In this document: in pieces, positions 2,947 to 59,952 of the stretch
Layout: the number at the start of each line of letters is the position of its first letter
How positions within the stretch are numbered: position 1 is the stretch's first letter
NCBI GenBank assembly: GCA_027491085.1
Contig: JAIXWW010000020.1
Coordinates: 72,586 to 136,585, forward strand
Reading direction: 5' to 3'
DNA: 64,000 nt
Origin: Bacteroidota bacterium
Lineage (GTDB): Bacteria; Bacteroidota; Bacteroidia; UKL13-3
Notes under the pieces: generated by a model
The model's input: the letters and a program-made list of their open reading frames with translations, nothing else
What the model was told of the DNA's origin: nothing
Database searches by the model: none
Made by a program: the position numbers and the translations under genes

Positions 2947-3540
2947 TTAAAGTTTTTCGCCAGCTTCAATTCTAGTATTGATAAAATTCTCTTTAGGAGG
3001 AATTGGACAAGTATAATTGCTGTTATACAAGCAATATGGATGATAAGCTAAGTTGAAATCAATATCTACTAAGTTGTTTTTAGGAATTTCTATATCTAAA
3101 TAACGGCCTCCACCATAAGTTTCACTTCCAGTAGTTAAATCGGTAAAACAAATAAGTAAGTAGTTCTTATATTCCTCTTTTTTATTGACTGCTTCTAAAA
3201 CTGTAAGCTCGTAATTATTACCATTTAGAGTAAAACTAATTTTACCATATTGCTTATAGGGCTTACTGCTATTATGCGAGTGAGGCAATTCAAAATGAGG
3301 CATATCGGCATACTTAGTTAAAGTAGCAGTTACTTTATAATTTGGGTTTACTTCAAAAAACTTTAAACCAGTAAATGTTTTCAATTTATTGGTGTCAAGT
3401 GGTGTGGTTTGAGCATCAAAAAAAGTGTGGTTAGTACTGTTTCTATGTGCTAAAATAGAATCTAAATAAGCTTGATCAATTCCATTGCAAGCTGTTAAAA
3501 ACAATGCCGCAAAAACTAATAATTTATTTACAATTTTCAT
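2947..3540 (-). CDS. DUF1684-like lipoprotein
   Basis: 197 aa with lipobox LTAC. The C-terminal AYHPYCLYNSNYTCPIPPKEN resembles the conserved DUF1684 signature. There is a 0-nt gap to the upstream gene, so it is the last gene of a three-gene minus-strand operon. Confidence 0.7.
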   Translation of the reverse strand: MKIVNKLLVFAALFLTACNGIDQAYLDSILAHRNSTNHTFFDAQTTPLDTNKLKTFTGLKFFEVNPNYKVTATLTKYADMPHFELPHSHNSSKPYKQYGKISFTLNGNNYELTVLEAVNKKEEYKNYLLICFTDLTTGSETYGGGRYLDIEIPKNNLVDIDFNLAYHPYCLYNSNYTCPIPPKENFINTRIEAGEKL

Positions 3541-4479
3541 TTAATGAATCTCGTACTCTTTAACCTGCTGAACCACAAATTTATTAGCACCATTGGTCCC
3601 ATTGTGAACAAATACTACTAATTTTAAATTTTGTCTATTCCAAGTTTCGTTGGGTGCAAATTGGTAATCGTATGTTTTTTCAAAAACACGCCCAGGTACA
3701 ATGCTTGCTTTTAATTGCGAACCAGTAGTTGGGGTAATCATTCTGCGTAAAATATGGTTGTGTAAATAGATTTCATTTACCATAGCGCCATCTTCTTGGC
3801 AATCAATTAAACTATCTTCAATAATAGCTATACTTACAAATTGAGAATCGGTAGAAGCCGAGGTATAAGTTAATTTTACATTTATTCTAATGGTATTAGC
3901 ATCTACATAATATACTCCTTTTGTTCCAAAAGTATCAATGTTTACAATAGAAGTTGTAAGTAGTTTTTCAGATGTTTTACCGGGCCATTTATTATCATTA
4001 ATCAATATTGCACTTTCACTTGGACTAAATAAAGTTCTATTAATGGAACCAATTGGTAATTGGCTTGTTCCACCTAGCATGGTTAATAAATCAGCAGCTT
4101 CTTCAGTTCTAAAATCATATTTACTATTATGGTCATCACCTGGTTTTTTAAATGGACTGGTTAATGTAGCTAACAATCCCTTACCTGGATGCATGGCCAT
4201 AACAAATACTCTTCCTGGGTAGTCTGACATTAATTTTTTAGCCACACCTTGTGCACGCGGGCAGTTAGGGCATTTAACACCAGTAAAATCTTCAATTAAT
4301 ACATTAGTAGCCTGAGCAGCAGGAATGGTATTGGTAATATAAGTGGTATCAAATACACTTCTTTCCGGTGTAAAATTTAATCCTGGAGGTGCTTCCTCAT
4401 CGCAAGATGCCAATGCAAAAATACTCAATGCAATTATTTGCAACGCTTTGATGCTTTTTATTTTATTTAATATTTTCAT
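3541..4479 (-). CDS. Omp28-related / thioredoxin-like outer membrane lipoprotein
   Basis: 312 aa with lipobox LASC. It has the FTGVKCPNCP CxxC motif in the context typical of Bacteroidota Omp28-related lipoproteins. Confidence 0.6.
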   Translation of the reverse strand: MKILNKIKSIKALQIIALSIFALASCDEEAPPGLNFTPERSVFDTTYITNTIPAAQATNVLIEDFTGVKCPNCPRAQGVAKKLMSDYPGRVFVMAMHPGKGLLATLTSPFKKPGDDHNSKYDFRTEEAADLLTMLGGTSQLPIGSINRTLFSPSESAILINDNKWPGKTSEKLLTTSIVNIDTFGTKGVYYVDANTIRINVKLTYTSASTDSQFVSIAIIEDSLIDCQEDGAMVNEIYLHNHILRRMITPTTGSQLKASIVPGRVFEKTYDYQFAPNETWNRQNLKLVVFVHNGTNGANKFVVQQVKEYEIH

Positions 4480-6176: not shown

Positions 6177-6366
6177 GCGATTGCAATATTATAATTGTGA
6201 GGCAATAAAAAAAACTGTAAAATATTGGATTTTAGTTTTCTGTTTACTTAGTGAATGGACTCATTAAAGGAAAAGTAAAATGCGATTTCGGAACTGAAAG
6301 GCTGGTTAAAAGAAAGTAAAAAAACACTAAATGAAAGCAATTTTTTTAAAAAAGCATAGATATAAA

Positions 6367-6576
6367 TTTACTTTATGTTGAGTGTTTTTTACTTTATGCT
6401 CAGTATAAAAGAATTTATGCTGAGTATATTTTGCTTTATGCCCAATGTAATTTACTTTATGCTGTGTGTGTTTTACTTTATGCTTAGTATAAAAGAATTT
6501 ATGCTGATTATTTTTTACTTTATGACTAGTATAATTTACTTTATGCTAAGTATATCTTGCTTTATGCCTGATATAA
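6367..6576. repeat. Tandem array of ten 21-bp units, consensus TTTACTTTATGCTNAGTATAA
   Basis: The (C/A)TTTATG core recurs at exactly 21-nt spacing, starting at 6371, 6392, 6413, 6434, 6455, 6476, 6497, 6518, 6539 and 6560. Units 2-3 and 6-7 are near-identical, giving an 84-nt higher-order repeat. Confidence 0.95.
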
Positions 6577-6949: not shown

Positions 6950-7597
6950 TTATTTTTTTATAATTGTCCAATTGATATTATTTATTTTATCTTGGATATA
7001 AAATAACCCAAATTCTTTACAGTAATAACCTTTTCCTATATTATAATTATCAAATTCATGAAATTCATAAAATACATTTTTGAACATTACATTATTAATA
7101 ATTGTATCTCCAATATATTTTTTATATTTTTTATCATCAACAACACAATCACAAAAAATAACGTGTAAATCATTATTAAAGTGAAATTCTATCATATTGT
7201 AATAATCATTATCAGGTCTTGTATTGCTGTTTACCTCTATAAATAGTTCTTTTCCATGCTTAAATTGAAAACTACCATTTCCTTTAATGCAAGTATATTT
7301 TGCTCCATAGGTTTCATAGCAGTTGTAATTTGGTAAACAATCTTTACTGCTATAATAATCTTTGCAATACCAACTGCTATCTTTGGCTTGTCGAACAAAC
7401 ACAAGTGTATCTCCTTTATTGCTAGCATAGCTTATTGTATCAAACTGTTTTTTTAAGTAAGGTACTTTACTTTTTGAAGTGCTATCTAAGGTTTGATAGT
7501 TATAGGTTTGATCGCCACAAGGAGTGTTGTTTTTGTCTTTCAGGCAGCTTTGAGTAAATACAATAAGTAGTAAAATAACAAGTACTTGTTTTTTCAT
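6950..7597 (-). CDS. Hypothetical lipoprotein (Cys/Tyr-rich)
   Basis: 215 aa with a signal peptide and lipobox-like TQSC. No recognisable domain. Confidence 0.5.
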   Translation of the reverse strand: MKKQVLVILLLIVFTQSCLKDKNNTPCGDQTYNYQTLDSTSKSKVPYLKKQFDTISYASNKGDTLVFVRQAKDSSWYCKDYYSSKDCLPNYNCYETYGAKYTCIKGNGSFQFKHGKELFIEVNSNTRPDNDYYNMIEFHFNNDLHVIFCDCVVDDKKYKKYIGDTIINNVMFKNVFYEFHEFDNYNIGKGYYCKEFGLFYIQDKINNINWTIIKK

Positions 7598-8144
7598 AAT
7601 TTTTTATGGTTTTAAAGTTTAACAAATGTTAGAATAATTAATTAACAAAAACATACCCATAAATAGATATTTTTATAAAAACAAACATTGGTTATTTTAA
7701 TTGTAATTACAATAAATAATTTTTTAATGTGGCAAATAAAATTTATTGCATTTATTACCAATAAATTAACTATAAAAAACGCCTGAATTTTTATGGTTAT
7801 TTATAACCAAATTTGGTACTTTATAACCATACGTTTTTAATGATAATTAATATGGAATAAACAAGAAAAACCCACCTAATGAGTATTTTATTACTTACTA
7901 GGTAGGTTTTAAAAAAAAATCATCAAGAATTAAATTTTATTCAAGTTTAAATAAAGCTAATCAATTAACCGCAGTCGCTCGCATCTTGCGAGTGATTTTA
8001 TATTAGGCTTCCCGCCATTTATTTAACTTTATGATGTTAGCCGGAGGCTTATCAATACTTTCACTGGCAGGACACTAGCGAATGACGGAAAAAAATAGCG
8101 TTTTACTTTAAATCTATCAACGGACAACAATCAACCAACAACTA

Positions 8145-10184: not shown

Positions 10185-10456
10185 AACGCAAATTTAAGCT
10201 ATTTTGGGTTTTGTATTTGTTAAGATAATTCAAATAATTTATGTTCAATAAGGAAAAGTTTCTATAACAATGTTTGTGTTAAATTGTGAAACAATTTTAA
10301 GTAACAATTTTAAATTCATGATTGGTTTAATTGCAGTCCAATTAAATTGCAGCAAGGCATTATTGATTGTTTAAAATAACAATAAGGGCTATATCTAATG
10401 CAAATTCTTAAATTAAATAAAATGCTTTTGGAAACATTTGCTAAAATAGTTTACAT

Positions 10457-10490
10457 AAAAAAAATAGCACATGTTGAATACATGTGCTAT
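10457..10490 (-). terminator. Rho-independent terminator of 10518-11735
   Basis: An 11-bp perfect stem ATAGCACATGT / ACATGTGCTAT (10464-10490) has a 5-nt loop. On the minus strand it is followed by a U-run (plus-strand A-run 10457-10463). Confidence 0.8.
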
Positions 10491-10517
10491 TTTCAAAAGT
10501 GTTTAATTGTTGAGATA

Positions 10518-11735
10518 TTAATTATTTAATTCGTATCGTGTTTGTTGTTCATCAATAAAAGTTTTTAAAGCATCTATCTTTCTTTCTTCTTTATTACTTA
10601 AATCTAAAGTGGCAGTTTTTACCAGAATTGCTTTTGCTTTTGCATAATCATTTGTCCAAGTATAGGCTTCAGCTAAATTCCAAATAGTAGCAAATGTAAC
10701 ATCATTATTTACTCTCGATTTTTTATCGCTTGGTGTTGATTGTTGCATAGCAAGATTCCAAAGTTCAATTGATTTTAAAAGCTTGGTTTTAGCTTCTTCT
10801 GGAAAGTCAATAATTTGCATATAAGCTTCTGCTGCAGATACATAAGCGCTAGCATAGTCAGCGTAATCAAACTTTTTACCTTCTACATTATTTAAAACTG
10901 TTTTTCTTTCTGTAACAGAAAAGCCACATTTTTTATTTAAAAGTTCATTGGCTTTTTTCATGCTTTTTTCAATACAAGGAGTTTCTAACGAAGGAAGTAA
11001 ACTAGCATTATCCTGAATTACTCTTTCAGCTTTTTCTTTATATTCTATATCGCCAGAAGTCCAAGTGCTATATGAATTTGTTTCTTCTACAGCAGCTTCC
11101 CAAAGAACTGTATTTCTGTCGGGAGATAAAATTTTTATTGTAATTGGGTGACGATAATTGAAGCTAGCACGATAAGATACTTTATTGGTTGAGTAGTTTT
11201 TCATTTCAGTTAATTTTACTGGCTCGTATTCAAAACCATGTGCAATAAATTGAACAATAACAGCATTCTCGCTAGATTTTTTGTAACCATCAAGAATGAT
11301 ATAAGTTGTTGCTAATAAATTAGCATCAGCAACATTTCTAATAAATGGTTTAGCCACAGATTCTTTAGATACATACTCTTGCGTTGGTTTGGTATTTTGA
11401 CCCAAAAGTGTTTTCTCAGCTAGTTTAGTTCCAAACGATTTATTCTTATAATCTTCTTTTTCTTTTGCATATTTTTCGGCAGATTCTTTTTTTTCTGCTG
11501 CATATTTTTGATTTGCTTCTTGGTTTTTTGAATCGTATTCTGCTTTTTTAGCTTTGTCTGCTTCAACGTATTCTAACACTACTTCACCTTTATATGATGT
11601 ATACTTTTTGTCAAGTGGGTTAAGTGGAAGTTGTTTGTATTTAAACTTAATATCCTCATCTTTTATTTTCTGTGCATTTAAAAAATTACATGTTAGCAGT
11701 AATGATAAGATTAGTAGTTTTGTTCTTGTTTTCAT
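10518..11735 (-). CDS. Secreted hypothetical protein with a Lys/Glu-rich N-terminal region and a helical-repeat-like C-terminus
   Basis: 405 aa with a signal peptide. No catalytic motif recognised. Confidence 0.55.
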   Translation of the reverse strand: MKTRTKLLILSLLLTCNFLNAQKIKDEDIKFKYKQLPLNPLDKKYTSYKGEVVLEYVEADKAKKAEYDSKNQEANQKYAAEKKESAEKYAKEKEDYKNKSFGTKLAEKTLLGQNTKPTQEYVSKESVAKPFIRNVADANLLATTYIILDGYKKSSENAVIVQFIAHGFEYEPVKLTEMKNYSTNKVSYRASFNYRHPITIKILSPDRNTVLWEAAVEETNSYSTWTSGDIEYKEKAERVIQDNASLLPSLETPCIEKSMKKANELLNKKCGFSVTERKTVLNNVEGKKFDYADYASAYVSAAEAYMQIIDFPEEAKTKLLKSIELWNLAMQQSTPSDKKSRVNNDVTFATIWNLAEAYTWTNDYAKAKAILVKTATLDLSNKEERKIDALKTFIDEQQTRYELNN

Positions 11736-11937
11736 ATTATTTTTTTAGTATTATATTAATGCATTATAATTTAATTTCCAATATTGACAAAATTATTTTA
11801 ACGTAAATAAAAAATACTGAGTATTATTTAACTGCTAACAATACTAAAAAATATTAAGCAATCTAGTTTATTTGAATTTTTGAAATTAAATCGTTGAATT
11901 CTGTTTCCAATAGGTTTTATAGTTATTATTAATTTAA

Positions 11938-12722: not shown

Positions 12723-13244
12723 TTATTTAACCAATGCTTTAATTTTTTCTTCTAAAGTAAACTCGTCACCTTCTAAATAACCAGTGTGGCTGTAAACAAT
12801 ATTTCCTTCTTTATTTAATAAAAAAGTATGAGGAGGATTTACCACATTCATGGCGCGCATCATGTCACTATTTACATCCAATAATACATCAAATGGCCAA
12901 GCTTGTCCGTCTACGTAAGGTTTAACTTTCATCACGTTTCTTGCATTGTCAATAGAAACTGCAACAACTATTACATCGTATTTTGATTTCCACTCTTCAT
13001 AAAGTTCGTTAATGTTATTTAACTCTTTTTTGCAAGGTGTACACCAAGTAGCCCAAAAGCTAATAATTACAATTTTGCCTTTCTTAGAATAATCTTTAAC
13101 ATTCACTACTTTACCATTTACATCTTTTAAATTTAAATCAGGTAAAGTTTGTTTTTGATCTTGTGCAAATGCCACATTTAAAGTTAAAAAAGCAAATAGT
13201 GCAAAAACTAATTTTATGGCTGTGGTTTTGTTAAAAAATTTCAT
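12723..13244 (-). CDS. TlpA-family thiol:disulfide oxidoreductase (periplasmic thioredoxin-like)
   Basis: 173 aa with a signal peptide and the FWATWCTPCKKE CxxC active site. Confidence 0.85.
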   Translation of the reverse strand: MKFFNKTTAIKLVFALFAFLTLNVAFAQDQKQTLPDLNLKDVNGKVVNVKDYSKKGKIVIISFWATWCTPCKKELNNINELYEEWKSKYDVIVVAVSIDNARNVMKVKPYVDGQAWPFDVLLDVNSDMMRAMNVVNPPHTFLLNKEGNIVYSHTGYLEGDEFTLEEKIKALVK

Positions 13245-13396
13245 GGTAGTTTCGTTTTATTGAGTTGGTAAATTAAATTTATATAAAGCACATATCAAAG
13301 TTACTGCCAAAAATTATTTTTTAACGCTTATCAAAAATTATTCAATTTTTTGGCAAGCATTTTGTAATCTTGAAGAAAAAATAAATAACTAAAACC

Positions 13397-13981
13397 ATGA
13401 AAAAAATAATCATCGCATTAAGTGCCATTGGCGTTTTACTAAGTTCAAGCTGTGGCAATAGAAAAATTGAGAGAGTTGACCCTAATTTGGCAACTGATAT
13501 TAGCGGTCGTTGGAATGATACTGATAGCAAATTGGTAGCTGAAGAGATGACAAAAGATGTGTTAACAAAACCATGGATTGGTAACTTTGAAAAGGCATCT
13601 AATCGTAAGCCAGTTGTAATTATTGGTAGTGTTCGCAATAAAACCAGCGAGTTTATTGATGCAACAGGATTTATTAAAAATATGGAAGTGGCTTTTATTA
13701 ATGAAGGAAGAGTAAGTGTAGTTCAAAGTGCAGACGAGCGTAATCAAGTTCGTGATGAACGTAACGACCAACAAACTTTTGCTAGCGAGGAAAGCAAAAA
13801 GAAATGGGGTAAAGAAAGAGGTGCTGATTTCATGATGAATGGCGTGATAACTTCTATTACCGATGAATATAAAAACCGCAAATCAGTGGCCTATCAAATA
13901 AATTTAGAATTAACCAATCTTGAAACGAATGAAAAGGTGTGGATTGGTCAAAAACAAATCAAAAAATTAGTTAAAAACTAA
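13397..13981 (+). CDS. LpoB-like (COG3417-type) lipoprotein
   Basis: 194 aa with lipobox LSSSC. The central KPVVIIGSVRNKTSEFID...INEGRVSVV pattern matches LpoB/Cj0091-type lipoproteins. Confidence 0.55.
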   Translation: MKKIIIALSAIGVLLSSSCGNRKIERVDPNLATDISGRWNDTDSKLVAEEMTKDVLTKPWIGNFEKASNRKPVVIIGSVRNKTSEFIDATGFIKNMEVAFINEGRVSVVQSADERNQVRDERNDQQTFASEESKKKWGKERGADFMMNGVITSITDEYKNRKSVAYQINLELTNLETNEKVWIGQKQIKKLVKN

Positions 13982-14010
13982 AATACAATAAATTCGAGTA
14001 TAATTTAAAA

Positions 14011-14042
14011 AGAATGTTCTGGTTTAACAGAACATTCTTTTT
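14011..14042 (+). terminator. Rho-independent terminator after 13397-13981
   Basis: Stem AGAATGTTCTG / CAGAACATTCT (14011-14038) followed by TTTT. Confidence 0.75.
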
Positions 14043-14071
14043 AATTACCTATTTTATTTACTAAAAATAAA

Positions 14072-15469
14072 TTGCATAAAACTAAACTTCATATATTATT
14101 CTTTTTGGCTTTAGGCTTTTTAAGTTCCTGCGCTACCTATTATCAAAAACAGGCCGATTTGATGCAATCTGTTTATGATGGAAGATTGGATAAGGCCGAA
14201 ACTTTAATGAATGATGCTAAATGGCAAAAACCACTTAGAAATAAGCTTTTATTTTATTTAAACAAAGGAACTATACTTTGGATGAATGGTAAAAATGAAG
14301 AAAGCAATAAGTATTTTTTGCAAGCTGATTTATTTGTAGAAGACTATAGAAAAAACTATGCTACAGTAATTGCAAGCACTTTAATAAATCCTAATTATAG
14401 CACTTATAATGGTGAAACATTTGAGCAAGTATTAATCCATTATTACTTAACCATAAATTTTGTTCAAATGAATGATTTTGACAATGCCTTGGTAGCTTGT
14501 AAACGAATGATTGAAACAAGTCAGCGTTTAAATGACTTAATGGGTAATAAAAACAAATACAGGCGTGATGCTTTTGCGTACAATCTTTTAGGAATGATTT
14601 ACGATGCGCAAGGTGATTACAATAATGCTTTTATAGCCTACCGTAATGCATTTAATATTTATAAGGAAGACTACAAACCTCAATTAGGAACAGATATTCC
14701 TACGCAATTAAAGAAAGATATTTTACGTACCGCCAAATTAATTAGTTTTAGTGAAGAGTTGGCTCAATACGAAAACGAGTTTAATAGAAAAGCTGAACTA
14801 ATACCAGAAGGATTTGCGCCTTTGGTATTTTTTTGGAATAATGGTTTAGGTCCCATTAAAGATGAGAATTCAATTAATTTTGTTATCTATCCTTTGGCTA
14901 ATGGATATGTTAATTTTGTTAATGCTGATTTGGGATTAAGTTTTCCAATTTATGTGGGAAGTGCTGATGATCGAAAAAATTTGTCGGCTTTGAATATAGT
15001 GCGTGTTGCATGGCCAAAGTATGTTACTCGTACTCCATTATTTCAAAATGCTGTTATAAAGGATAGCTTAAATCGTCAATTTAAACTTGAAGTGGGTGAA
15101 GATATTAATGCCATTGCCTATAAAAGTTTAAATGATAGAATGCTAAAAGAAATTAGTGAGGCTATATTAAGATTAGCTTTTAAACAAATAGCAATTAGTG
15201 CAGCAAAAAAAGAAAATGAAGCTGCTGGAGCTGCCTTAAGTATATTAGGTGCTGTGAGTGAAAAGGCAGATACCAGAAATTGGCAATTATTACCCTATTC
15301 AATTAGTTATACAAGAGCATTTTTACCTATAGGCAAACAAAATTTTGTTCTCGAAACCCAATCAAAGGATACCGTAGAGAGAAATACTTTTTTTGTTGAT
15401 ATGAAGGAGGGTAAAACTAATTTCCAAGCTTTTCAAACACTTCAATTCACTGGGTTTTCAGATAGATAA
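14072..15469 (+). CDS. TPR-like lipoprotein (COG3014 / Cj0089-like)
   Basis: 465 aa. The predicted start is TTG, with no in-frame ATG near the N-terminus. It has lipobox LSSC and TPR-like helices (YNLLGMIYDAQGDYNNAFIAYRNAFNIY). Confidence 0.55.
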   Translation: MHKTKLHILFFLALGFLSSCATYYQKQADLMQSVYDGRLDKAETLMNDAKWQKPLRNKLLFYLNKGTILWMNGKNEESNKYFLQADLFVEDYRKNYATVIASTLINPNYSTYNGETFEQVLIHYYLTINFVQMNDFDNALVACKRMIETSQRLNDLMGNKNKYRRDAFAYNLLGMIYDAQGDYNNAFIAYRNAFNIYKEDYKPQLGTDIPTQLKKDILRTAKLISFSEELAQYENEFNRKAELIPEGFAPLVFFWNNGLGPIKDENSINFVIYPLANGYVNFVNADLGLSFPIYVGSADDRKNLSALNIVRVAWPKYVTRTPLFQNAVIKDSLNRQFKLEVGEDINAIAYKSLNDRMLKEISEAILRLAFKQIAISAAKKENEAAGAALSILGAVSEKADTRNWQLLPYSISYTRAFLPIGKQNFVLETQSKDTVERNTFFVDMKEGKTNFQAFQTLQFTGFSDR

Positions 15470-15510
15470 ACGATTGTTTACTTAATTTTATCCATGAAAA
15501 AGTCGACCGC

Positions 15511-15598
15511 TGCTAGCGGGCTTTATATATCGAAAAATTGTATTGTTAGTTAAAAATTTATTTTACTTTTTCAACAATAGCTTTGAAAGCATCAGGAT
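15511..15598. repeat. Direct repeat copy 1 (88 bp): an orphan copy of the rplT 3' end plus spacer
   Basis: Base-for-base identical to 16301-16388 (offset 790 nt). On the minus strand it would encode ...[12 protein letters not shown]. Confidence 0.95.
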
Positions 15599-15608
15599 TA
15601 TTTGAGTT

Positions 15609-16187
15609 TTAATCCTCTTTTTTATAGCCTTCGTAAAAATACGATTGTTCAATGCCTTTAAAAATTACTTCTCTATTATTAATATCGTTGGTTAAATTAG
15701 CTTTTAAAAGTGTTTTTAATTCTAAATCGTTAATAGGGCTGCGTTCCATGGCTTGCATATACAATGTTTTATCAACATGTTGCCAATTAACCACTTGTAG
15801 TAATTGTTTTTTTAAAATCATATCAAGCCAAATTCTAGTGGTGCGTCCATTGCCTTCTAAAAAAGGGTGAGCTATGTTCATTTCTATGTATTTGGCTATT
15901 ATTTCTTCAAAAGTAGTTTGGGGCATTTGTTCTATTTTGGCTAATGCCTCCACAAGGTATAAGGCATTGGCAAACCTGAAGCCACCTTTACTTATATTTT
16001 GAGTACGTATTTGCCCCGCAAAAGGATATAAGCCATTAAAAAGGTAAGTATGTATTTGCTGCAAACCCAAAGTTGTACCTATTTCAATATTATTTATATA
16101 TCCACTATCAAACAAACGATAGGCATTTTCTAGACTTTGTTTATCTATATTTTTCATGTTTTGCTTTAAAGGATGTCCATTTGGCAT
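15609..16187 (-). CDS. fic: Class III Fic-domain AMP-transferase (NmFic-like, single domain, self-inhibited)
   Basis: [12 protein letters not shown] matches the Fic core HxFx(D/E)GNGRxxR. The C-terminal SYFYEG matches the inhibitory helix motif (S/T)xxxE(G/N) placed as in class III. The likely true start is ATG at 16157 (MKNIDKQSL...), giving about 182 aa. Confidence 0.9.
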
Positions 16188-16214
16188 TTAATGTCGCTGC
16201 TTACTGCTTTTAGG

Positions 16215-16245
16215 CAAATATATTTTTTACTTACTCAGCAACCAA
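16215..16245 (-). promoter_or_regulatory. Candidate Bacteroidota sigma-A promoter for fic
   Basis: The minus strand reads TATATTTG (16222-16215), matching the -7 consensus TAnnTTTG. TTG elements lie 16 and 20 nt upstream. Confidence 0.4.
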
Positions 16246-16280
16246 ACATAAAAATTTACAGTTGTATTAATAAAAACCAC

Positions 16281-16312
16281 CAAATAAAAAAGCCCACTAT
16301 TGCTAGCGGGCT
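16281..16312 (-). terminator. Rho-independent terminator of the thrS-infC-rpmI-rplT operon
   Basis: On the minus strand, AGCCCGC (16312-16306) pairs with GUGGGCU (16297-16291) including one G:U, followed by UUUUUUAUUU. The proximal arm lies inside repeat copy 2. Confidence 0.75.
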
Positions 16313-16388
16313 TTATATATCGAAAAATTGTATTGTTAGTTAAAAATTTATTTTACTTTTTCAACAATAGCTTTGAAAGCATCAGGAT
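16301..16388. repeat. Direct repeat copy 2 (88 bp): the genuine rplT 3' end, spacer and proximal terminator arm
   Basis: Identical to 15511-15598. It overlaps the last 41 nt of rplT (16348-16388). Confidence 0.95.
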
Positions 16389-16692
16389 GATTCATTGCTA
16401 AATCAGCTAATACTTTACGGTTTAAACCTAAACCTTTTTTAGCTGCTAAACCAATAAATTGACTGTAGCTTAAACCATATTGACGAACACCTGCGTTGAT
16501 ACGCACGATCCAAAGTGCACGGAAATTACGTTTTTTGGTTTTTCTATCGCGGTAAGCATAGTTTAGACCTTTGTCTATAGTATGTTTGGCGACTGTTAAT
16601 ACATTTTTTCTAGCTCCCCAGTAACCTTTGGCTAACTTTAGGAGTTTTTTTCTGCGCCTTCTTGAGGCTACTGAATTGACTGAACGTGGCAT
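16348..16692 (-). CDS. rplT: 50S ribosomal protein L20
   Basis: 114 aa with the canonical [26 protein letters not shown]... sequence. Confidence 0.97.
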
Positions 16693-16783
16693 AATTTAAT
16701 TTTAGTTTTTTGAACCTAAGCGATCACTTCGGTTAAGTGTGATTCTTTGGGGCTTTTGTTCGGGTTAATACTTGTTTTAAACC

Positions 16784-16850
16784 GAGGTTGGGTTGGTTTA
16801 TTGTTAAATGGTTGGATTGTTAAATTGTTAGAAATTAAATCCTAGCAACT
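16784..16850 (-). other. 67-nt G-free (mRNA-sense) tract in the rpmI-rplT spacer
   Basis: The plus strand has no C from 16784 to 16850 by hand count. The minus strand reads ATTTAATTTCTAACAATTTAACAATCCAACCATTTAACAATAAACCAACCCAACC. Confidence 0.9.
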
Positions 16851-16862
16851 GACAACCAACAA

Positions 16863-17063
16863 CTACTTACCTATTCCCAATAAATTTTTAATCAACCCCA
16901 TGTCTGGAGTGCTAATGTAACCACCTTTGGTTAAGTTACGTTTGCGTTTAGTTGATTTTTTAGTTAAAATGTGACTTTTATAAGCTGAGCCTCTTTTAAT
17001 TTTACCACTTGGAGTGGTTTTGAAGCGCTTTTTAGCCGCACTGTTTGTTTTTACTTTTGGCAT
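16863..17063 (-). CDS. rpmI: 50S ribosomal protein L35
   Basis: 66 aa, starting [15 protein letters not shown]... Confidence 0.95.
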
Positions 17064-17104
17064 TTTAATCTCCGATTCTTTTTATACTTTACAATTTATC
17101 GATG

Positions 17105-17683
17105 CTATTTTTTAGGCTTAGGACTCATTATTAAATTCATCTTTTTACCTTCTAATTTTGGCAACATATCTACCTTACCCCAATCAGAAAGTTTTTGAGC
17201 AAATTGTAATAACAATACCTCTCCTCTTTCTTTGTACACAATAGAACGGCCTTTAAAAAATACATAAGCTTTTACTTTATGTCCTTCTTTTAAAAACTCT
17301 TCGGCATGTTTTAATTTAAAATCAAAATCATGGTCGTCAGTGTTGGGTCCAAAGCGTATTTCTTTAATATCCTGCTTTATTTGATTAGCTTTTGCTTCTT
17401 TAGCTTTTTTTCTGCGTTCAAACAAAAACTTTTTGTAATCAATTACTTTACAAACAGGCGGTTCTGCGTTTGGCGAAATTTCAACCAAATCTAATTCTTG
17501 TTCATCTGCAATTTCTAATGCACGCTGAATTGAATATACGCCTGGTTCAATACCTTCAGCAATTAAACGTACTTCTTTAGCACGAATTTGCATGTTGATA
17601 TTAAATTCTCCTTCACCTGGTTTCATTGGAAGTCTTCTTCCGCCAGGAACGTATGCCGATTTTTTTTTAGGTGGTAATGCCAA
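17105..17683 (-). CDS. infC: Translation initiation factor IF-3
   Basis: It has IRAKEVRLI near the N-terminus and the KVIDYKKF... C-terminal domain. The start is uncertain: the track start is TTG at 17683, and the ATG alternative at 17626 gives MKPGEGEF... Confidence 0.92.
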
Positions 17684-17689
17684 TCTTTT

Positions 17690-19654
17690 TTATTTTTTTA
17701 TTGTTAGTTGTTCTTTTAAATAATTTATAAAATCATCCAATTTCATTTTACCCAAATCTTCGCCTCCGTGCTTACGCACAGATACGCTGTCTTCGGCCAT
17801 TTCTTGCTCACCTATGATAAGCATAAATGGCGTTTTTTTGGTTTCGGCATCACGAATTTTCTTTCCTATTTTTTCGTTTCTGTCGTCAAATGAGCCGCGA
17901 ATATCATTTATTTTTAGCAAATCCAAAACTTTTTGTGCATAGTCATGATACTTTTCACTAATTGGTAACAAAGCAAATGGCTCAGGAGTTAACCAAAGTG
18001 GGAAATTTCCTGCACAATGTTCAATTAACACAGCCACAAATCTTTCCAACGAACCAAATGGTGCACGGTGAATCATAACTGGTCGGTGTTTTAAATTATC
18101 GCTTCCGGTATATTCTAGTTCAAAACGCTCAGGTAAGTTATAATCTACCTGAATAGTTCCTAATTGCCATTTTCTACCAATGGCATCTTTTACCATAAAA
18201 TCTAACTTAGGACCATAAAACGCAGCTTCGCCTAATTCAACCACAGTGGTTAAACCTTTTTCGGCTGCCGATTCGATAATAGCACTTTCGGCTAATGCCC
18301 AATTTTCGTCAGAACCAATGTATTTGGTTTTGTTTTCAGGATCGCGCAATGAAATTTGAGCAGTAAAATCTTGGAAATCTAATGCTTTGAATACATAAAG
18401 TACCAAATCAATTACTTTACAAAACTCTTCTTTTACTTGGTCAGGACGGCAAAATAAATGCGCATCATCTTGAGTAAAACCGCGTACACGGGTTAAACCA
18501 TGTAATTCGCCTGCTTGTTCGTAACGGTAAACAGTTCCAAACTCAGCATAACGCACCGGTAAATCTTTGTACGATTTTGGCGATGCTTTATAAATTTCGC
18601 AATGATGCGGACAGTTCATTGGTTTTAAGAAAAACTCTTCGCCTTCGCGCGGAGTGGCTATTGGCTGAAACGAATCAGCACCATATTTTTCGTAATGGCC
18701 AGATGTAATGTATAAATTTTTATTTCCAATATGCGGAGTAATAACTGGTAAATAACCAGCTGCTACTTGTGCTTTTTGTAAAAACTGAACTAAACGCTCG
18801 CGCAAGGCAGCGCCTTTAGGCAACCATAATGGTAAACCCATACCTACTTTTTCAGAAAAAGTAAATAGTTCTAATTCTTTTCCTAATTTTCTATGGTCGC
18901 GTTTTTTTGCTTCTTCAAGCATTAACAAATGCGCATCTAACTCCGCTTTTTTAGGGAAGGTAATTCCGTAAATACGCGTTAATTGCTTATTTTTTTCGTT
19001 TCCGCGCCAGTATGCACCTGCTACAGAAGTAAGTTTCAAGGCCTTAATAAATCCAGTGTTTGGAATATGTGGTCCGCGGCATAAATCGGTAAAATTTCCT
19101 TGCGTATAAAAAGTAATGGTACCATCGGCTAAATCCTGTAAAAGTTCTAACTTGTACTCATCGCCTTTTTCGGTAAAATAGCTAATGGCATCTGCCTTGC
19201 TCACTTCCTGGCGGTTGTAAACACTGCTTTGCTTGGCTAATTCCATCATTTTATCTTCAACCTTTTTCAGGTCTTCTGTCGAAAATGATTGTCCGTTAAA
19301 ATCAACATCGTAGTAAAAACCACTTTCTAAAGCAGGACCAATTCCAAATTTAACACCTGGATAAAGGGCTTCTAAGGCTTCGGCCATTAAATGTGCCGAT
19401 GAGTGCCACATGGTTTGTTTTCCTTCTAAATCATTCCAAGTTAAAAGGGTTAAAGAAGCATCATCGTTAATTGGGCGCGTAGCATCTACAGTTTGCCCAT
19501 TTACTTTTGCTGCTAATACATTTCTAGCCAATCCTTCACTAATTGATTTGGCCACGTCTAAGGCGGTTGCTCCCCGTTCATACGAGCGAACGGAACCGTC
19601 TGGTAAAGTTATATTTATCATAAGGGCGGGCAAGATACACTTTTGATTTTGCAA
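17690..19654 (-). CDS. thrS: Threonine--tRNA ligase
   Basis: It has a TGS domain ([11 protein letters not shown]), an editing domain and a class II catalytic core. The track start is TTG at 19654, and ATG at 19621 (MINITLPDG) is more likely. Confidence 0.97.
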
Positions 19655-19814
19655 ATGGAAAGTAATTTTTTGTTAATTGGCAACTGGCGGACGGCAACTA
19701 GCCGCTGGCTGCTAGCTTATGTCCGTTGTTGTGTCTCCTGACAAACAACTGGATGCAAGATATTTCTGTTGATATCCTGATATTCTATAATTTTATCAAA
19801 TAAAATTTTCAACA

Positions 19815-20510
19815 ATGCATTTCTCCGAAATATTAAACATACTTTTGATATTAAAACAATCACAAATGAAAGCCATTGTATCGTATTTTCTTATTTCAAT
19901 GTTTGTAATGTGTTACTTAGTTAGCTGTAAAAATGAACAGAAAGATACCATAGAAACTGTATTTTTCACTCAAGATTCACTTTACAAAATAACATTCGAC
20001 AAACCATTGGAATTTGATACTTTTTATGCTTGGGAAGATATTGATGACAACAGTGCTTCGCATGAATACAAATATAGATTTTCCAAAAAAAGTTACCCAA
20101 GTCAACAAGAAACTGGTTTTTTATGGACTTCATTTGCAGATTCTACCTATCGATTTACAATTATGCATAACAGAAATTTCTATTGGAAAACATTAAGAGA
20201 TTTCAATAATGATAGTTCTATTGTTCAACTGAAAAATAGATTAGAATATCGAACTCTTATAGGTGAAATAACAATAGATTCATTAGAAGTAAAAAAAATT
20301 GTAATAAATAATCAAGCTTACGCAATTTCCAAATATAAGCAGAACGAAAATTACAAAAATGGTTATTGGACTTATTACCTTTTTGCTTACACTGTTGTTG
20401 ATAGTAATTTCATTTCTTTCACAGTTGATTGTAGATCTCAAAATTGTAATGGTTTTATAGATAGATTTGAGAAAACGATAAAATCAATAAAAATTGAGAG
20501 ATTTAAATAA
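19815..20510 (+). CDS. Hypothetical lipoprotein
   Basis: The likely start is ATG at 19866 (MKAIVSYFLISMFVMCYLVSC, a lipobox). No recognisable domain. Confidence 0.5.
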   Translation: MHFSEILNILLILKQSQMKAIVSYFLISMFVMCYLVSCKNEQKDTIETVFFTQDSLYKITFDKPLEFDTFYAWEDIDDNSASHEYKYRFSKKSYPSQQETGFLWTSFADSTYRFTIMHNRNFYWKTLRDFNNDSSIVQLKNRLEYRTLIGEITIDSLEVKKIVINNQAYAISKYKQNENYKNGYWTYYLFAYTVVDSNFISFTVDCRSQNCNGFIDRFEKTIKSIKIERFK

Positions 20511-58389: not shown

Positions 58390-59952
58390 TTATTGTTCAA
58401 ATTCAACTTTGAATTCAACCCTACGATTTTTAGTTTTTCCTTCTTTTGTAGAATTATCATAAGCAGGTTTTGTATCTCCAAAACCTTCAGAACGCACTCT
58501 TTCAGTTTTAACACCTTTGCTTTCTAAGTATTTTTCAACTGCTGCCGCTCTGTCTTGTGATAATTTTAAGTTTTTAGCCGCATCACCAACATTATCGGTA
58601 TGACCTAAAATGTATAATTTGTAAGTTGGATTTTCTGCCATTATCTTAGCTACGTTATTTAAAATAGCAAATGAATTAGGTTTAATAATAGATTTGCCAG
58701 TTTCGAACTGAACACCTTGTAATGCTTTTTCAAATAATTGTTTAACTGCAGCTTTAATTTCTGGGCAACCATTATTTGCAGCTACACCAGCTACTTTAGG
58801 GCAATTATCTAGTTTGTCTTCAATGCCATCGTTATCTGTATCAGGACAACCTCTGAATGCTGCAATACCAACAACGGTAGGGCAAGCATCTTCGCTATCT
58901 TGAATTCCATCGTTATCTGTATCAGGGCAACCTTTGAATGTTGCAATACCAGCAACGGTAGGACAAGCATCTTCGCTATCTTGGATACCATCATTATCAG
59001 AATCAGGGCAACCTTTAAATTTAGCAATACCAGCAACAGTTGGACATTTGTCTTCACTGTCTTGAACTCCATCGTTATCAGAATCAGGGCAACCTTTAAA
59101 ATTAGCTACACCAGCTACTAGTGGACAAGCATCTTTATTATCAGCTATTCCATCTTTATCACTATCAATTGAACAACCTGTGGTTGGGTTAACTAAATCA
59201 CCAGCAGGTGTATTTGGACACTTATCTCTTTTGTCACCAACTCCGTCACCGTCTGTATCAATAACTTTACCTAAATTCATTGTTACACCAATAGTATGAA
59301 ACCAAGCTTGGTCATATGTTAGTTGTTCATATAATGGTAAACCTTCTACTTTATCATTATTTGTCCACATGTAATTTGATTGGATATTCATGCCAAATTT
59401 TTCAGTTAATTTAACATTTACCCCTAAACCAGCAGGAACAGTAAATTCATATAAACCACCTTCGTCTAAACCAAAAATCCCAAAATCTTCCATTCTAGTT
59501 TTTGGCATGTTTATTCTTCTTGCGCCTAAACCTAAAGTAACATAAGGGGTAAACATAGCATTATCTTTTTCTAAAAATTTCCAACGAGGGGTAATTTCAA
59601 ATCCTAAAGTTTGACGGTAAAAATTACCTGTGGTAGTGCTACCTATTACGTTAGGTTTGTCAAAATATCCCCATTCTCCAAGATATCCTCTTGCCGAAAT
59701 ATCAAATTGGTTACTTAAATACCTAGTTATTGTTAAATAACCAATACCTGGTGTGTTTTGTGATACACCTCCACCATTATTTGCCACATCATGTGGTGTT
59801 AAATCAAATTTAAAAAATCCATTTCCCAAGTCGCCTGAGTATTCAGAGATACCAACACCAAGACCAATTTGCCAAGGCATATCTTTGGTTTGAGCCTGAC
59901 CATATTGGCCAAAACAAGTTACTAATAGTGCACCTAATAAAAGTTTCTTCAT
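58390..59952 (-). CDS. OmpA-family protein with an N-terminal beta-barrel, thrombospondin type-3 repeats and a C-terminal OmpA peptidoglycan-binding domain
   Basis: 520 aa with DxDxDGxxDxxD repeats (CPDSDNDGVQDSEDKCP...). The OmpA_C motifs are ILGHTDNVGDAAKNLKLSQDRAAAV and NRRVEF. Confidence 0.9.
   Translation of the reverse strand: MKKLLLGALLVTCFGQYGQAQTKDMPWQIGLGVGISEYSGDLGNGFFKFDLTPHDVANNGGGVSQNTPGIGYLTITRYLSNQFDISARGYLGEWGYFDKPNVIGSTTTGNFYRQTLGFEITPRWKFLEKDNAMFTPYVTLGLGARRINMPKTRMEDFGIFGLDEGGLYEFTVPAGLGVNVKLTEKFGMNIQSNYMWTNNDKVEGLPLYEQLTYDQAWFHTIGVTMNLGKVIDTDGDGVGDKRDKCPNTPAGDLVNPTTGCSIDSDKDGIADNKDACPLVAGVANFKGCPDSDNDGVQDSEDKCPTVAGIAKFKGCPDSDNDGIQDSEDACPTVAGIATFKGCPDTDNDGIQDSEDACPTVVGIAAFRGCPDTDNDGIEDKLDNCPKVAGVAANNGCPEIKAAVKQLFEKALQGVQFETGKSIIKPNSFAILNNVAKIMAENPTYKLYILGHTDNVGDAAKNLKLSQDRAAAVEKYLESKGVKTERVRSEGFGDTKPAYDNSTKEGKTKNRRVEFKVEFEQ
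58800..59230 (-). repeat. In-frame tandem 81-bp (27-aa) coding repeats encoding TSP3 units
   Basis: The CCATC(G/A)TTATC anchor recurs at 58826, 58907, 58988, 59069 and 59150, an exact 81-nt period. Confidence 0.9.

Follow-up and report, generated by a model that had tools for sequence, protein, structure and literature searches.

The window analysed here is the whole of a 64,000-nucleotide (64-kb) stretch of contig JAIXWW010000020.1, from an uncultured freshwater member of the Bacteroidia. Within it, fic, a gene for a Fic-family AMP-transferase, stands directly behind rplT, the gene for ribosomal protein L20, and is bracketed by two copies of a direct repeat, which we call D, that reproduces the 3' end of rplT. 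We read this arrangement, with a probability of roughly 0.7, as a one-gene accessory islet that carries an intact, self-promoted class III Fic enzyme and occupies a flexible locus between rplT and a gene for a TPR protein. Alignment with related loci shows that the duplication is old and had a single origin, in an ancestor from which a clade of uncultured freshwater Bacteroidia descends, that the two D copies evolve in concert, and that fic has been inherited with its flanks under purifying selection. The islet is not a fresh insertion, nor is it a new class of element; it is of a known kind, with an instructive variant.

The features of the locus are as follows (ORF, open reading frame; aa, amino acids; nt, nucleotides).

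16348..16692, minus strand: rplT, encoding ribosomal protein L20 and closing the series thrS-infC-rpmI-rplT; ORF, Pfam Ribosomal_L20 at 5.8e-42.
16284..16392, minus strand: proximal repeat D, made up of the real rplT end (~45 nt), then its 3' spacer and terminator; perfect core 16301-16388.
16289..16314, minus strand, folding on the plus strand too: rplT intrinsic terminator, AAAGCCCGCUAGCAAUAGUGGGCUUU followed by a U-run; from folding and a terminator scan.
16215..16246, minus strand: putative fic promoter, with TTTG at 16243-16246 and TATATTTG at 16215-16222; block conserved in relatives.
15609..16157 (longest ORF to 16187), minus strand: fic, 182-aa class III Fic AMP-transferase, NmFic equivalog; from Pfam, NCBIfam, PDB and PADLOC.
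15494..15602, minus strand: distal, orphan repeat D, a non-coding duplicate that takes in the rplT 3' end, the spacer and the terminator's first arm; the core 15511-15598 is perfect.
15498..15519, minus strand: degenerate terminator at the orphan copy, with a 5-bp CCGCU/AGCGG hairpin left; from folding and scan.
14072..15469, plus strand: convergent gene for a TPR protein, conserved, and flanking the variable locus on its distal side; ORF, Pfam TPR; syntenic in loci L002-L007 and L010.

On the minus strand the order runs thrS, infC, rpmI, rplT, proximal D, a fic leader of ~130 nt, fic, orphan D, and then the convergent end of the TPR gene. Positions 15511-15598 and 16301-16388 are identical over 88 nt, with 0 mismatches and an offset of 790. 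There is no third site in the 64-kb window, and 100 shuffles of the window gave no match to the 88-mer. With one mismatch allowed, the pair is found over 109 nt at 94% (15494-15602 and 16284-16392, spacing 790), and no other dispersed repeat of this type of 40 nt or more occurs in the window. Since rplT ends at 16348, the second copy spans its final 41 nt and the 47 nt downstream; the conserved flank on the rplT side of this proximal copy runs on to ~16270. The first copy begins 10 nt beyond the fic stop. The ORF coordinates agree with the description given in a first-pass annotation of the window, in which one copy was the genuine rplT end and the other an orphan; as far as statements of fact go, that annotation is correct throughout. 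That annotation had also placed a good terminator beside the proximal copy only, and folding agrees: the proximal hairpin reaches -18.4 kcal/mol (z -3.9) and its orphan equivalent -8.1 kcal/mol (z -0.3). The orphan hairpin is weak because its second arm reads GCGGTCGAC rather than ATAGTGGGC; at this position the conspecific locus L005 reads ATAGTAGGC. Rfam models matched the D region only weakly, as leader models aligned to the terminator hairpin, all under their gathering scores.

Relatives were found through contigs that encode the identical 114-aa L20 protein, which is present in 22 contigs read. They provided ten loci, from metagenome-assembled genomes (MAGs) of uncultured freshwater Bacteroidia and from metagenomes. 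A scan of genome contigs returned five species representatives, four of them already among the collected loci, and the clade sample comprises ~13 genomes. A scan of metagenome contigs for the repeat core gave 0 matches, though sequences that match it exactly are known among the JGI contigs of another collection.

The order rplT-D-fic-D recurs in seven assemblies (L002, L005, L007, L008, L110, L111 and the window), and in all seven, the divergent L110 included, the left junction lies at about the same place, ~45-50 nt ahead of the rplT stop. Among the five assemblies compared, fic has diverged by 0.16-0.25 at four-fold degenerate sites against ~4-5% overall, a disparity that points to purifying selection. 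The fic module as a whole is 91-94% identical, in parallel with the divergence of the adjacent TPR/LpoB block. L005, which is conspecific with the window (~97.4%), is collinear with it across rplT-D-fic-D at 95-97%. Within the clade, fic is found only at rplT. It is from the common junction, the divergence of fic at four-fold sites and the collinearity of the conspecific locus that we conclude that the duplication is old and single; the module is not a recent arrival in the window's genome.

The contrary reading, drawn from the first-pass annotation, is that a ~790-bp fic circle with homology to the rplT 3' end had lately integrated by a Campbell-type single crossover, of which the 88-nt repeats would be the fresh scar. 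Cargo plus one repeat is indeed the geometry that such an event would leave, the copies are 100% identical, and the deletion alleles described below imply that circles of this kind can form; there may have been a late re-integration in this particular genome. As an account of the locus, however, a recent landing is very unlikely. It does not fit the same, collinear arrangement in a conspecific, nor five more assemblies with about the same junction and with fic 16-25% diverged at four-fold sites where compared; nor does it fit lineage-specific changes that are present in both D copies, or the restriction of fic to rplT. The same annotation had named, as one outcome that would count against it, an old vertical locus with diverged, non-repeated flanks. 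The locus is old and largely vertical, but repetition persists in its flanks, and the unit is polymorphic.

Nor is the duplication an artefact of assembly, since six other independent assemblies have it. A mis-join, or a collapsed or expanded repeat, could be suspected from the several short contigs that stop just past fic, as contigs do at repeats. The two copies are nevertheless spanned within long contigs of seven independent assemblies and samples, and their copy-specific substitutions differ, which leaves this explanation a negligible chance.

That the copies are kept alike is evident from comparisons within and between genomes. In four of the five genomes compared, the orphan differs from its own proximal copy at 0-3 of 88 positions, and in L007 at 8. 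Between genomes, orthologous orphans differ from one another at 1-3 of 88 positions where 14-18 would be expected from drift at the four-fold rate (P at most 2e-4); L007 is again the exception, at 7-8. In L110, 15 derived columns are found in both D copies, against private columns numbering 1 and 3, and the changes concerned include an altered rplT codon, an insertion of 2 nt, a deletion of 3 nt, and compensatory changes within the stem of the terminator. Sharing of this sort is what gene conversion or unequal exchange between the copies leaves behind. The rplT copy is strongly constrained (four-fold divergence 0-0.06), and presumably serves as the template, by way of gene conversion or unequal exchange. 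The identity of the window's copies is due, accordingly, to concerted evolution and not to recency.

Downstream of rplT the locus comes in no fewer than seven structural alleles. The majority lie between rplT and the TPR gene; L001, L008 and L009 have other downstream flanks. What follows rplT in each is given below.

Window, L002 and L007: fic alone.
L111: fic, the contig ending inside distal D.
L005: fic and a 128-aa lipoprotein gene.
L003, L006, L013, L004 and L010: the lipoprotein gene alone.
L008: a 223-aa gene and fic.
L009: nothing extra.
L001: other genes.

All of the units downstream of rplT are delimited by copies of the rplT-terminator region. The fic units close with a D copy that starts ~45-50 nt inside rplT, and the lipoprotein unit with a 54-59-nt copy that starts 22 nt past the rplT stop, so that L005, which has both, contains a three-copy array. 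Common to all copies are the 54 nt from ACAATACAA to TTTTTTATT; the left boundaries vary, and the crossover point is not mappable. At every locus other than the window the whole hairpin is duplicated, and in L008 the repeat amounts to 123 nt. The abrupt stop in identity within the hairpin loop is thus peculiar to the window. A site-specific crossover within the hairpin loop, where identity stops in the window, was considered and rejected for this reason. The spacer between the rplT-side copy and fic varies also, being ~20 nt, 147 nt, or the 223-aa gene. The cargo proteins of the other units (the 116/128-aa lipoprotein and proteins of 223, 146/154 and 341 aa) gave no informative family matches.

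Several of these alleles are related by simple subtraction. L009 equals L008 minus exactly 1675 nt, comprising the insert and one D, and the two align on both sides of a clean gap; L003, L004 and L010 equal L005 minus fic and one D; and L005 without its 721-nt lipoprotein unit gives the window, L002 and L007. The empty site that had been anticipated in relatives therefore exists, and so do precise-deletion alleles. Outgroups show the lipoprotein gene to be ancestral at this position. Lineages with and without fic are interleaved on the trees of both flanks, and the two trees disagree, which implies recombination in the region. Deletions between repeats suffice to derive most structural alleles from an arrangement like that of L005. 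While the deletion alleles themselves are plain, it is we who infer recombination between the repeats as their mechanism.

The history that we propose runs as follows. Recombination between the proximal and the second D would remove fic, as in L003, L004 and L010, and recombination between the second D and the 54-59-nt partial copy beside the TPR gene would remove the lipoprotein unit, as in L002, L007 and the window. The D copies might act in the other direction too, as homology arms through which a unit is regained, either when an excised circle enters by a single crossover or when linear DNA from a relative enters by a double one. On this scheme the orphan D would be a portable right-hand homology arm, and it may provide a terminator both to fic and to the TPR gene.

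Smaller differences among the relatives were observed in passing. L002 (6410-6557) has, as do L007 and L111 at the equivalent place, a 147-nt segment with a small terminator-like hairpin of its own between the rplT terminator and the fic module. A stretch of ~60 nt that contains a stem-loop precedes the fic promoter in L002, L007 and L008 and is deleted in the window and L005. In the window itself, 5 of 8 bases in the second arm of the orphan terminator (15498-15506) are unlike those of L005 (GCGGTCGA versus ATAGTAGG), and the change generates perfect small palindromes, CCGCTAGCAGCGG and GTCGAC; it could be a template-switch or quasi-palindrome mutation. L004 has three copies of a 65-71-nt sequence upstream of the lipoprotein gene (in the region of 7151-7215, 7388-7452 and 7804-7868), by which the lipoprotein unit grows to ~1.5 kb there (~1.3 kb in L010); the locus is prone to local duplication. 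L116 and L117, which are the L008 and L009 loci, belong to a lineage without the TPR gene. Downstream of the rplT locus, at ~12900-20300, they encode a NUDIX/NrtR-like regulator, an M48 peptidase, and a 1803-aa helicase with DUF4011, AAA_11, AAA_12, MTES_1575 and WGR domains, to which L117 adds a Gp49/HTH (HigBA-like) pair. The neighbourhood looks defence-like.

The cargo of the islet is an orthologue of NmFic, the class III Fic AMP-transferase of Neisseria meningitidis. The fic ORF matches Pfam Fic (E 3.9e-14) and, over profile positions 1-177 of 177, the NCBIfam equivalog NF046029, ProtAdlyltaseNmFic (299.5 bits against a cut-off of 230). It also aligns over its full length with NmFic of the PDB (3s6a; E 4.7e-94, ~75% identity). 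The most likely start is the ATG at 16157, giving 182 aa, rather than the one at 16187. Nucleotide homology across genera begins at 16157-16166, homologues are mostly 182-185 aa long, and the upstream ATG is ATA in L008, all of which favour the shorter form on comparative grounds. The protein contains the Fic core motif, HxFx(D/E)GNGRxxR, in which H97, P98, F99, E101, G102, N103, G104, R105 and R108 are invariant among 17 homologues. Near its end, at residues 172-177 of 182, the inhibitory (S/T)xxxE(G/N) helix reads SYFYEG and aligns, in the PDB alignment, with SYYYEG of NmFic. S172, Y173, Y175, E176, G177 and Y178 are invariant in the same 17 homologues, as are both tyrosines that match the auto-AMPylation sites of NmFic (Y183/Y188 in NmFic numbering).

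NmFic is auto-inhibited through its C-terminal SxxxEG helix. No separate antitoxin gene is present here: between the repeats, fic is the only ORF of 40 aa or more on its strand, and the gene calls of relatives agree (ORFs on the opposite strand, which mostly overlap fic, were not counted as genes). These results uphold the initial assignment to class III NmFic-type enzymes that need no antitoxin. An exact look-up found no identical Fic protein on record. NmFic is known to AMPylate GyrB and itself, and to be controlled via tetramer formation (PMC12894286). By homology, the window's Fic is expected to AMPylate GyrB once de-repressed. PADLOC assigns the protein to PDC-S04 (PDLC04842; E 7.5e-92, positions 17-195 of 202), a candidate single-gene phage-defence family, for which the one published native-host test that we found reported no activity (bioRxiv 10.1101/2024.12.20.629700).

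The part of the module that is homologous among relatives begins at ~16263, and its promoter block, ...ACTGTAAATTTTTATGTTTGGTTGCTG.GTAAGTAAAAAATATATTTGCC, is kept in every relative that carries fic. We take TTTG...TATATTTG, from the known consensus, to be a putative promoter of the Bacteroidetes -33/-7 type. The annotation of a single gene with a promoter of its own, still a putative one, between the repeats is in keeping with this conservation. Outside the clade, nucleotide homology stops at the edges of the fic ORF. A mobile-element envelope common to fic across genera was considered, and rejected because the homology amounts to the ORF only.

How the founding duplication arose is a separate matter. 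Direct repeats that run from inside the 3' end of a housekeeping gene to beyond it are a classic signature of integrative elements, and D, both copies of which begin ~45 nt short of the rplT stop, has the form of direct attachment-site (att) repeats that take in the target's 3' end. The two copies might, then, be the attL and attR of an element that used a tyrosine integrase to target the rplT 3' end and carried a replacement for it. With the integrase and most of the cargo lost, fic would remain beside attR as a cis-mobilizable element (CIME), and the other units would have accreted in tandem. There is precedent at ribosomal-protein genes. Integrases that belong to ICEs (integrative and conjugative elements) and to IMEs (integrative and mobilizable elements) target the 3' ends of rpsI, rpmG and rplL, and leave behind CIMEs of 1.2-13 kb and microCIMEs in tandem (PMC7563491). 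L005 has a three-copy array, and the variable spacer between proximal D and fic fits progressive decay. On the other hand, in the 10 loci whose rplT flank was read as far as ±10 kb, no integrase domain occurs over that distance, which accords with the first-pass remark that no recombinase is in sight. None was found, either, among ten mid-sized ORFs of the window that were tested, and a cognate element bearing an integrase was not found in the ~13 genomes of the sample. Nor are there further D copies in the loci searched around rplT, and D has 0 matches in the viral contigs of IMG/VR. The left boundaries of the units are unequal (-45 in rplT for one, +22 past the stop for the other), so that no fixed crossover core is definable, and units of 0.7-0.8 kb fall below the size of the cargo-carrying CIMEs that have been described. 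A decayed integrative element is the best candidate for the founding duplication, and compatible with the later history, while being in itself unlikely.

The fic family keeps company with direct repeats elsewhere also. Of 60 non-redundant fic loci in other organisms, 7 show the gene flanked on both sides, within 350 nt, by a direct repeat 30 nt or more in length, against 3 of 120 control ORFs in the same loci (Fisher p = 0.017), and all three bracketed controls sit in one locus, L037. This locus (L037:1-6546) is an array of single ORFs, seven or more in number and all oriented alike, including fic (3001-3564) and mostly followed by a direct repeat of ~185-207 nt that starts ..TAACATTGGTTTGGCAA and ends ..GCCAAGCC..CGTTA; no integrase was found in the L037 stretch. 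L039 (2776-3804) and L044 (900-2232) contain similar arrays, and across the three loci the repeats are 130-207 nt long, with attC-like ends that pair as TAAC...GTTA. These look like integron-type cassette arrays, resembling clusters of attC sites lacking integron-integrases (CALINs), that carry class III fic. At six other loci, in other genera (L016, L024, L086, L072, L032 and L040), fic is bracketed by locus-specific, mutually unrelated direct repeats of 49-220 nt. In L086 (2908-3603) these are 49-nt repeats, the second beginning 3 nt past the fic stop; in L072 (1337-2099) they are 77-nt repeats, the second overlapping the stop; and in L024 (4197-5682) and L016 (5711-6856) they are hairpin units of ~100 nt and 92 nt. 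The downstream copy at bracketed fic loci often lies 0-50 nt past the stop. Together these cases are suggestive of cassette-like behaviour by NmFic-type genes, short of a claim about mechanism. We observed, besides, that the contigs of L024, L025, L028, L110 and L111 break within a few hundred nt after fic. Such breaks are consistent with repeats or strain variation adjoining the gene in several genera.

That the units behind rplT are themselves integron cassettes, with D as an attC-like site and an unlinked integron integrase serving the array, is highly improbable. It would accommodate the fic ORFs found in arrays of one-ORF, one-orientation units with ~130-207-nt repeats ending ..TAAC...GTTA.. 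(L037, L039 and L044), the cassette-like size of units of 0.7-0.8 kb, and the two units in tandem in L005. An attC site, however, is an imperfect palindrome of ~57-140 nt with paired R''/R' (AAC...GTT) ends. D has neither a long imperfect palindrome nor AAC...GTT termini, and it includes 45 nt of rplT coding sequence. Folded as single-stranded DNA it gives the 26-nt terminator hairpin and a small one over the rplT stop and nothing more, and attC-like folding was rejected on this account. The lipoprotein unit, moreover, is in the opposite orientation, and no integrase was found in the ORFs tested or within ±10 kb. A bolder proposal makes the rplT terminator region a chromosomal site for cassette acquisition, at which an unlinked recombinase recognises D, or else the 54 nt common to all copies, a core whose end is the terminator U-run. 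Fic would then be a widely travelling defence cassette, and its repeated bracketing in unrelated genomes, by long direct repeats of local derivation, a general result of insertion that duplicates 50-200 nt of target. This we consider quite unlikely.

Several points weigh against our reading of the locus as a flexible islet whose repeats are maintained by concerted evolution. A duplication of >100 nt around the insert is unlike the product of simple homologous replacement. No circle, excision junction or polymorphism within a population was seen, and the alleles all come from different assemblies. The L007 orphan has drifted (8 of 88 positions), so homogenisation is not universal, and conservation of the orphan could stem partly from selection on its sequence, as a terminator or 3' untranslated region. 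Simple recombination does not account for the eight-base patch in the window's distal hairpin arm. Finally, the function of this Fic is read, by analogy, from that of NmFic only.

Three other observations in the window fall outside the rplT locus. A 1.6-kb segment (10219-11847) is missing from all relatives, including the conspecific L005; it holds a 405-aa ORF on the minus strand (10518-11735) with a weak, sub-threshold match to GLPGLI in NCBIfam. As an insertion sequence or recombinase this segment found no backing, there being no Pfam or PADLOC match and no clear terminal repeats. An intergenic tandem array at 6365-6574 comprises about ten 21-nt units of consensus ~TTTACTTTATGCTGAGTAT. And at 58760-59164, inside a 520-aa ORF (58390-59952), there are 4-5 tandem repeats of 81 nt, or 27 codons each.

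The islet resembles several known systems without coinciding with any. Its closest functional parallel is NmFic itself (NF046029; PDB 2G03/3S6A/5CGL), to which the window's Fic is alike in the HPFxEGNGRxxR core, the C-terminal SxxxEG helix, the conserved auto-AMPylated tyrosine positions, and the absence of an antitoxin gene. It differs in its host, an uncultured freshwater member of the Bacteroidia, and its activity, target and candidate role in defence are predicted. In Neisseria meningitidis, NmFic is a single-gene flexible genomic island (PMC8627216). The present locus also resembles the minimal mobile elements, or flexible islets, of Saunders and Snyder (2002), as defined in PMC8627216, which like it have two conserved flanking genes, alternative content between strains, and no mobility genes. 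Exchange in minimal mobile elements is ascribed to homologous recombination; here, the flank trees are incongruent. The difference is that long direct repeats, copied from one flank and evolving in concert, bound the units behind rplT and permit intramolecular deletion and circle formation; such repeats lie outside the definition of minimal mobile elements. The CIMEs of Streptococcus ICESt3 and related IMEs share direct repeats that take in a ribosomal-protein gene's 3' end, small cargo without a recombinase, and tandem arrays. They differ in that no cognate integrase-bearing element was found here, in that D is far longer than typical att cores and has variable boundaries, and in phylum; rplT, too, is not among the targets listed in PMC7563491. 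Integron cassettes and CALINs likewise comprise one-gene units, of 0.7-0.9 kb, and include the fic family in attC-like arrays elsewhere, unlike the present units, in which D is not attC-like, orientation is mixed, and no IntI was found. Our search of the literature found no paper on a repeat-bounded NmFic-type gene behind rplT.

Perfect direct repeats around a cargo are usually taken as evidence of recent insertion, and at this locus that would be wrong. The locus is a clean natural case in which a copy, ~110-123 nt long, of the 3' end of an essential gene has been kept near-identical by concerted evolution across lineages whose neutral sites have moved ~20% apart. Repeats of this kind can make a single accessory gene precisely losable, and perhaps regainable, without a dedicated recombinase. 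For the Bacteroidia concerned, the finding puts an orthologue of NmFic, which is a candidate single-gene enzyme of defence or growth control, into a flexible locus, in parallel with its island status in Neisseria; for the fic family at large, it points to a possibly general link with repeat-bounded, cassette-like units.

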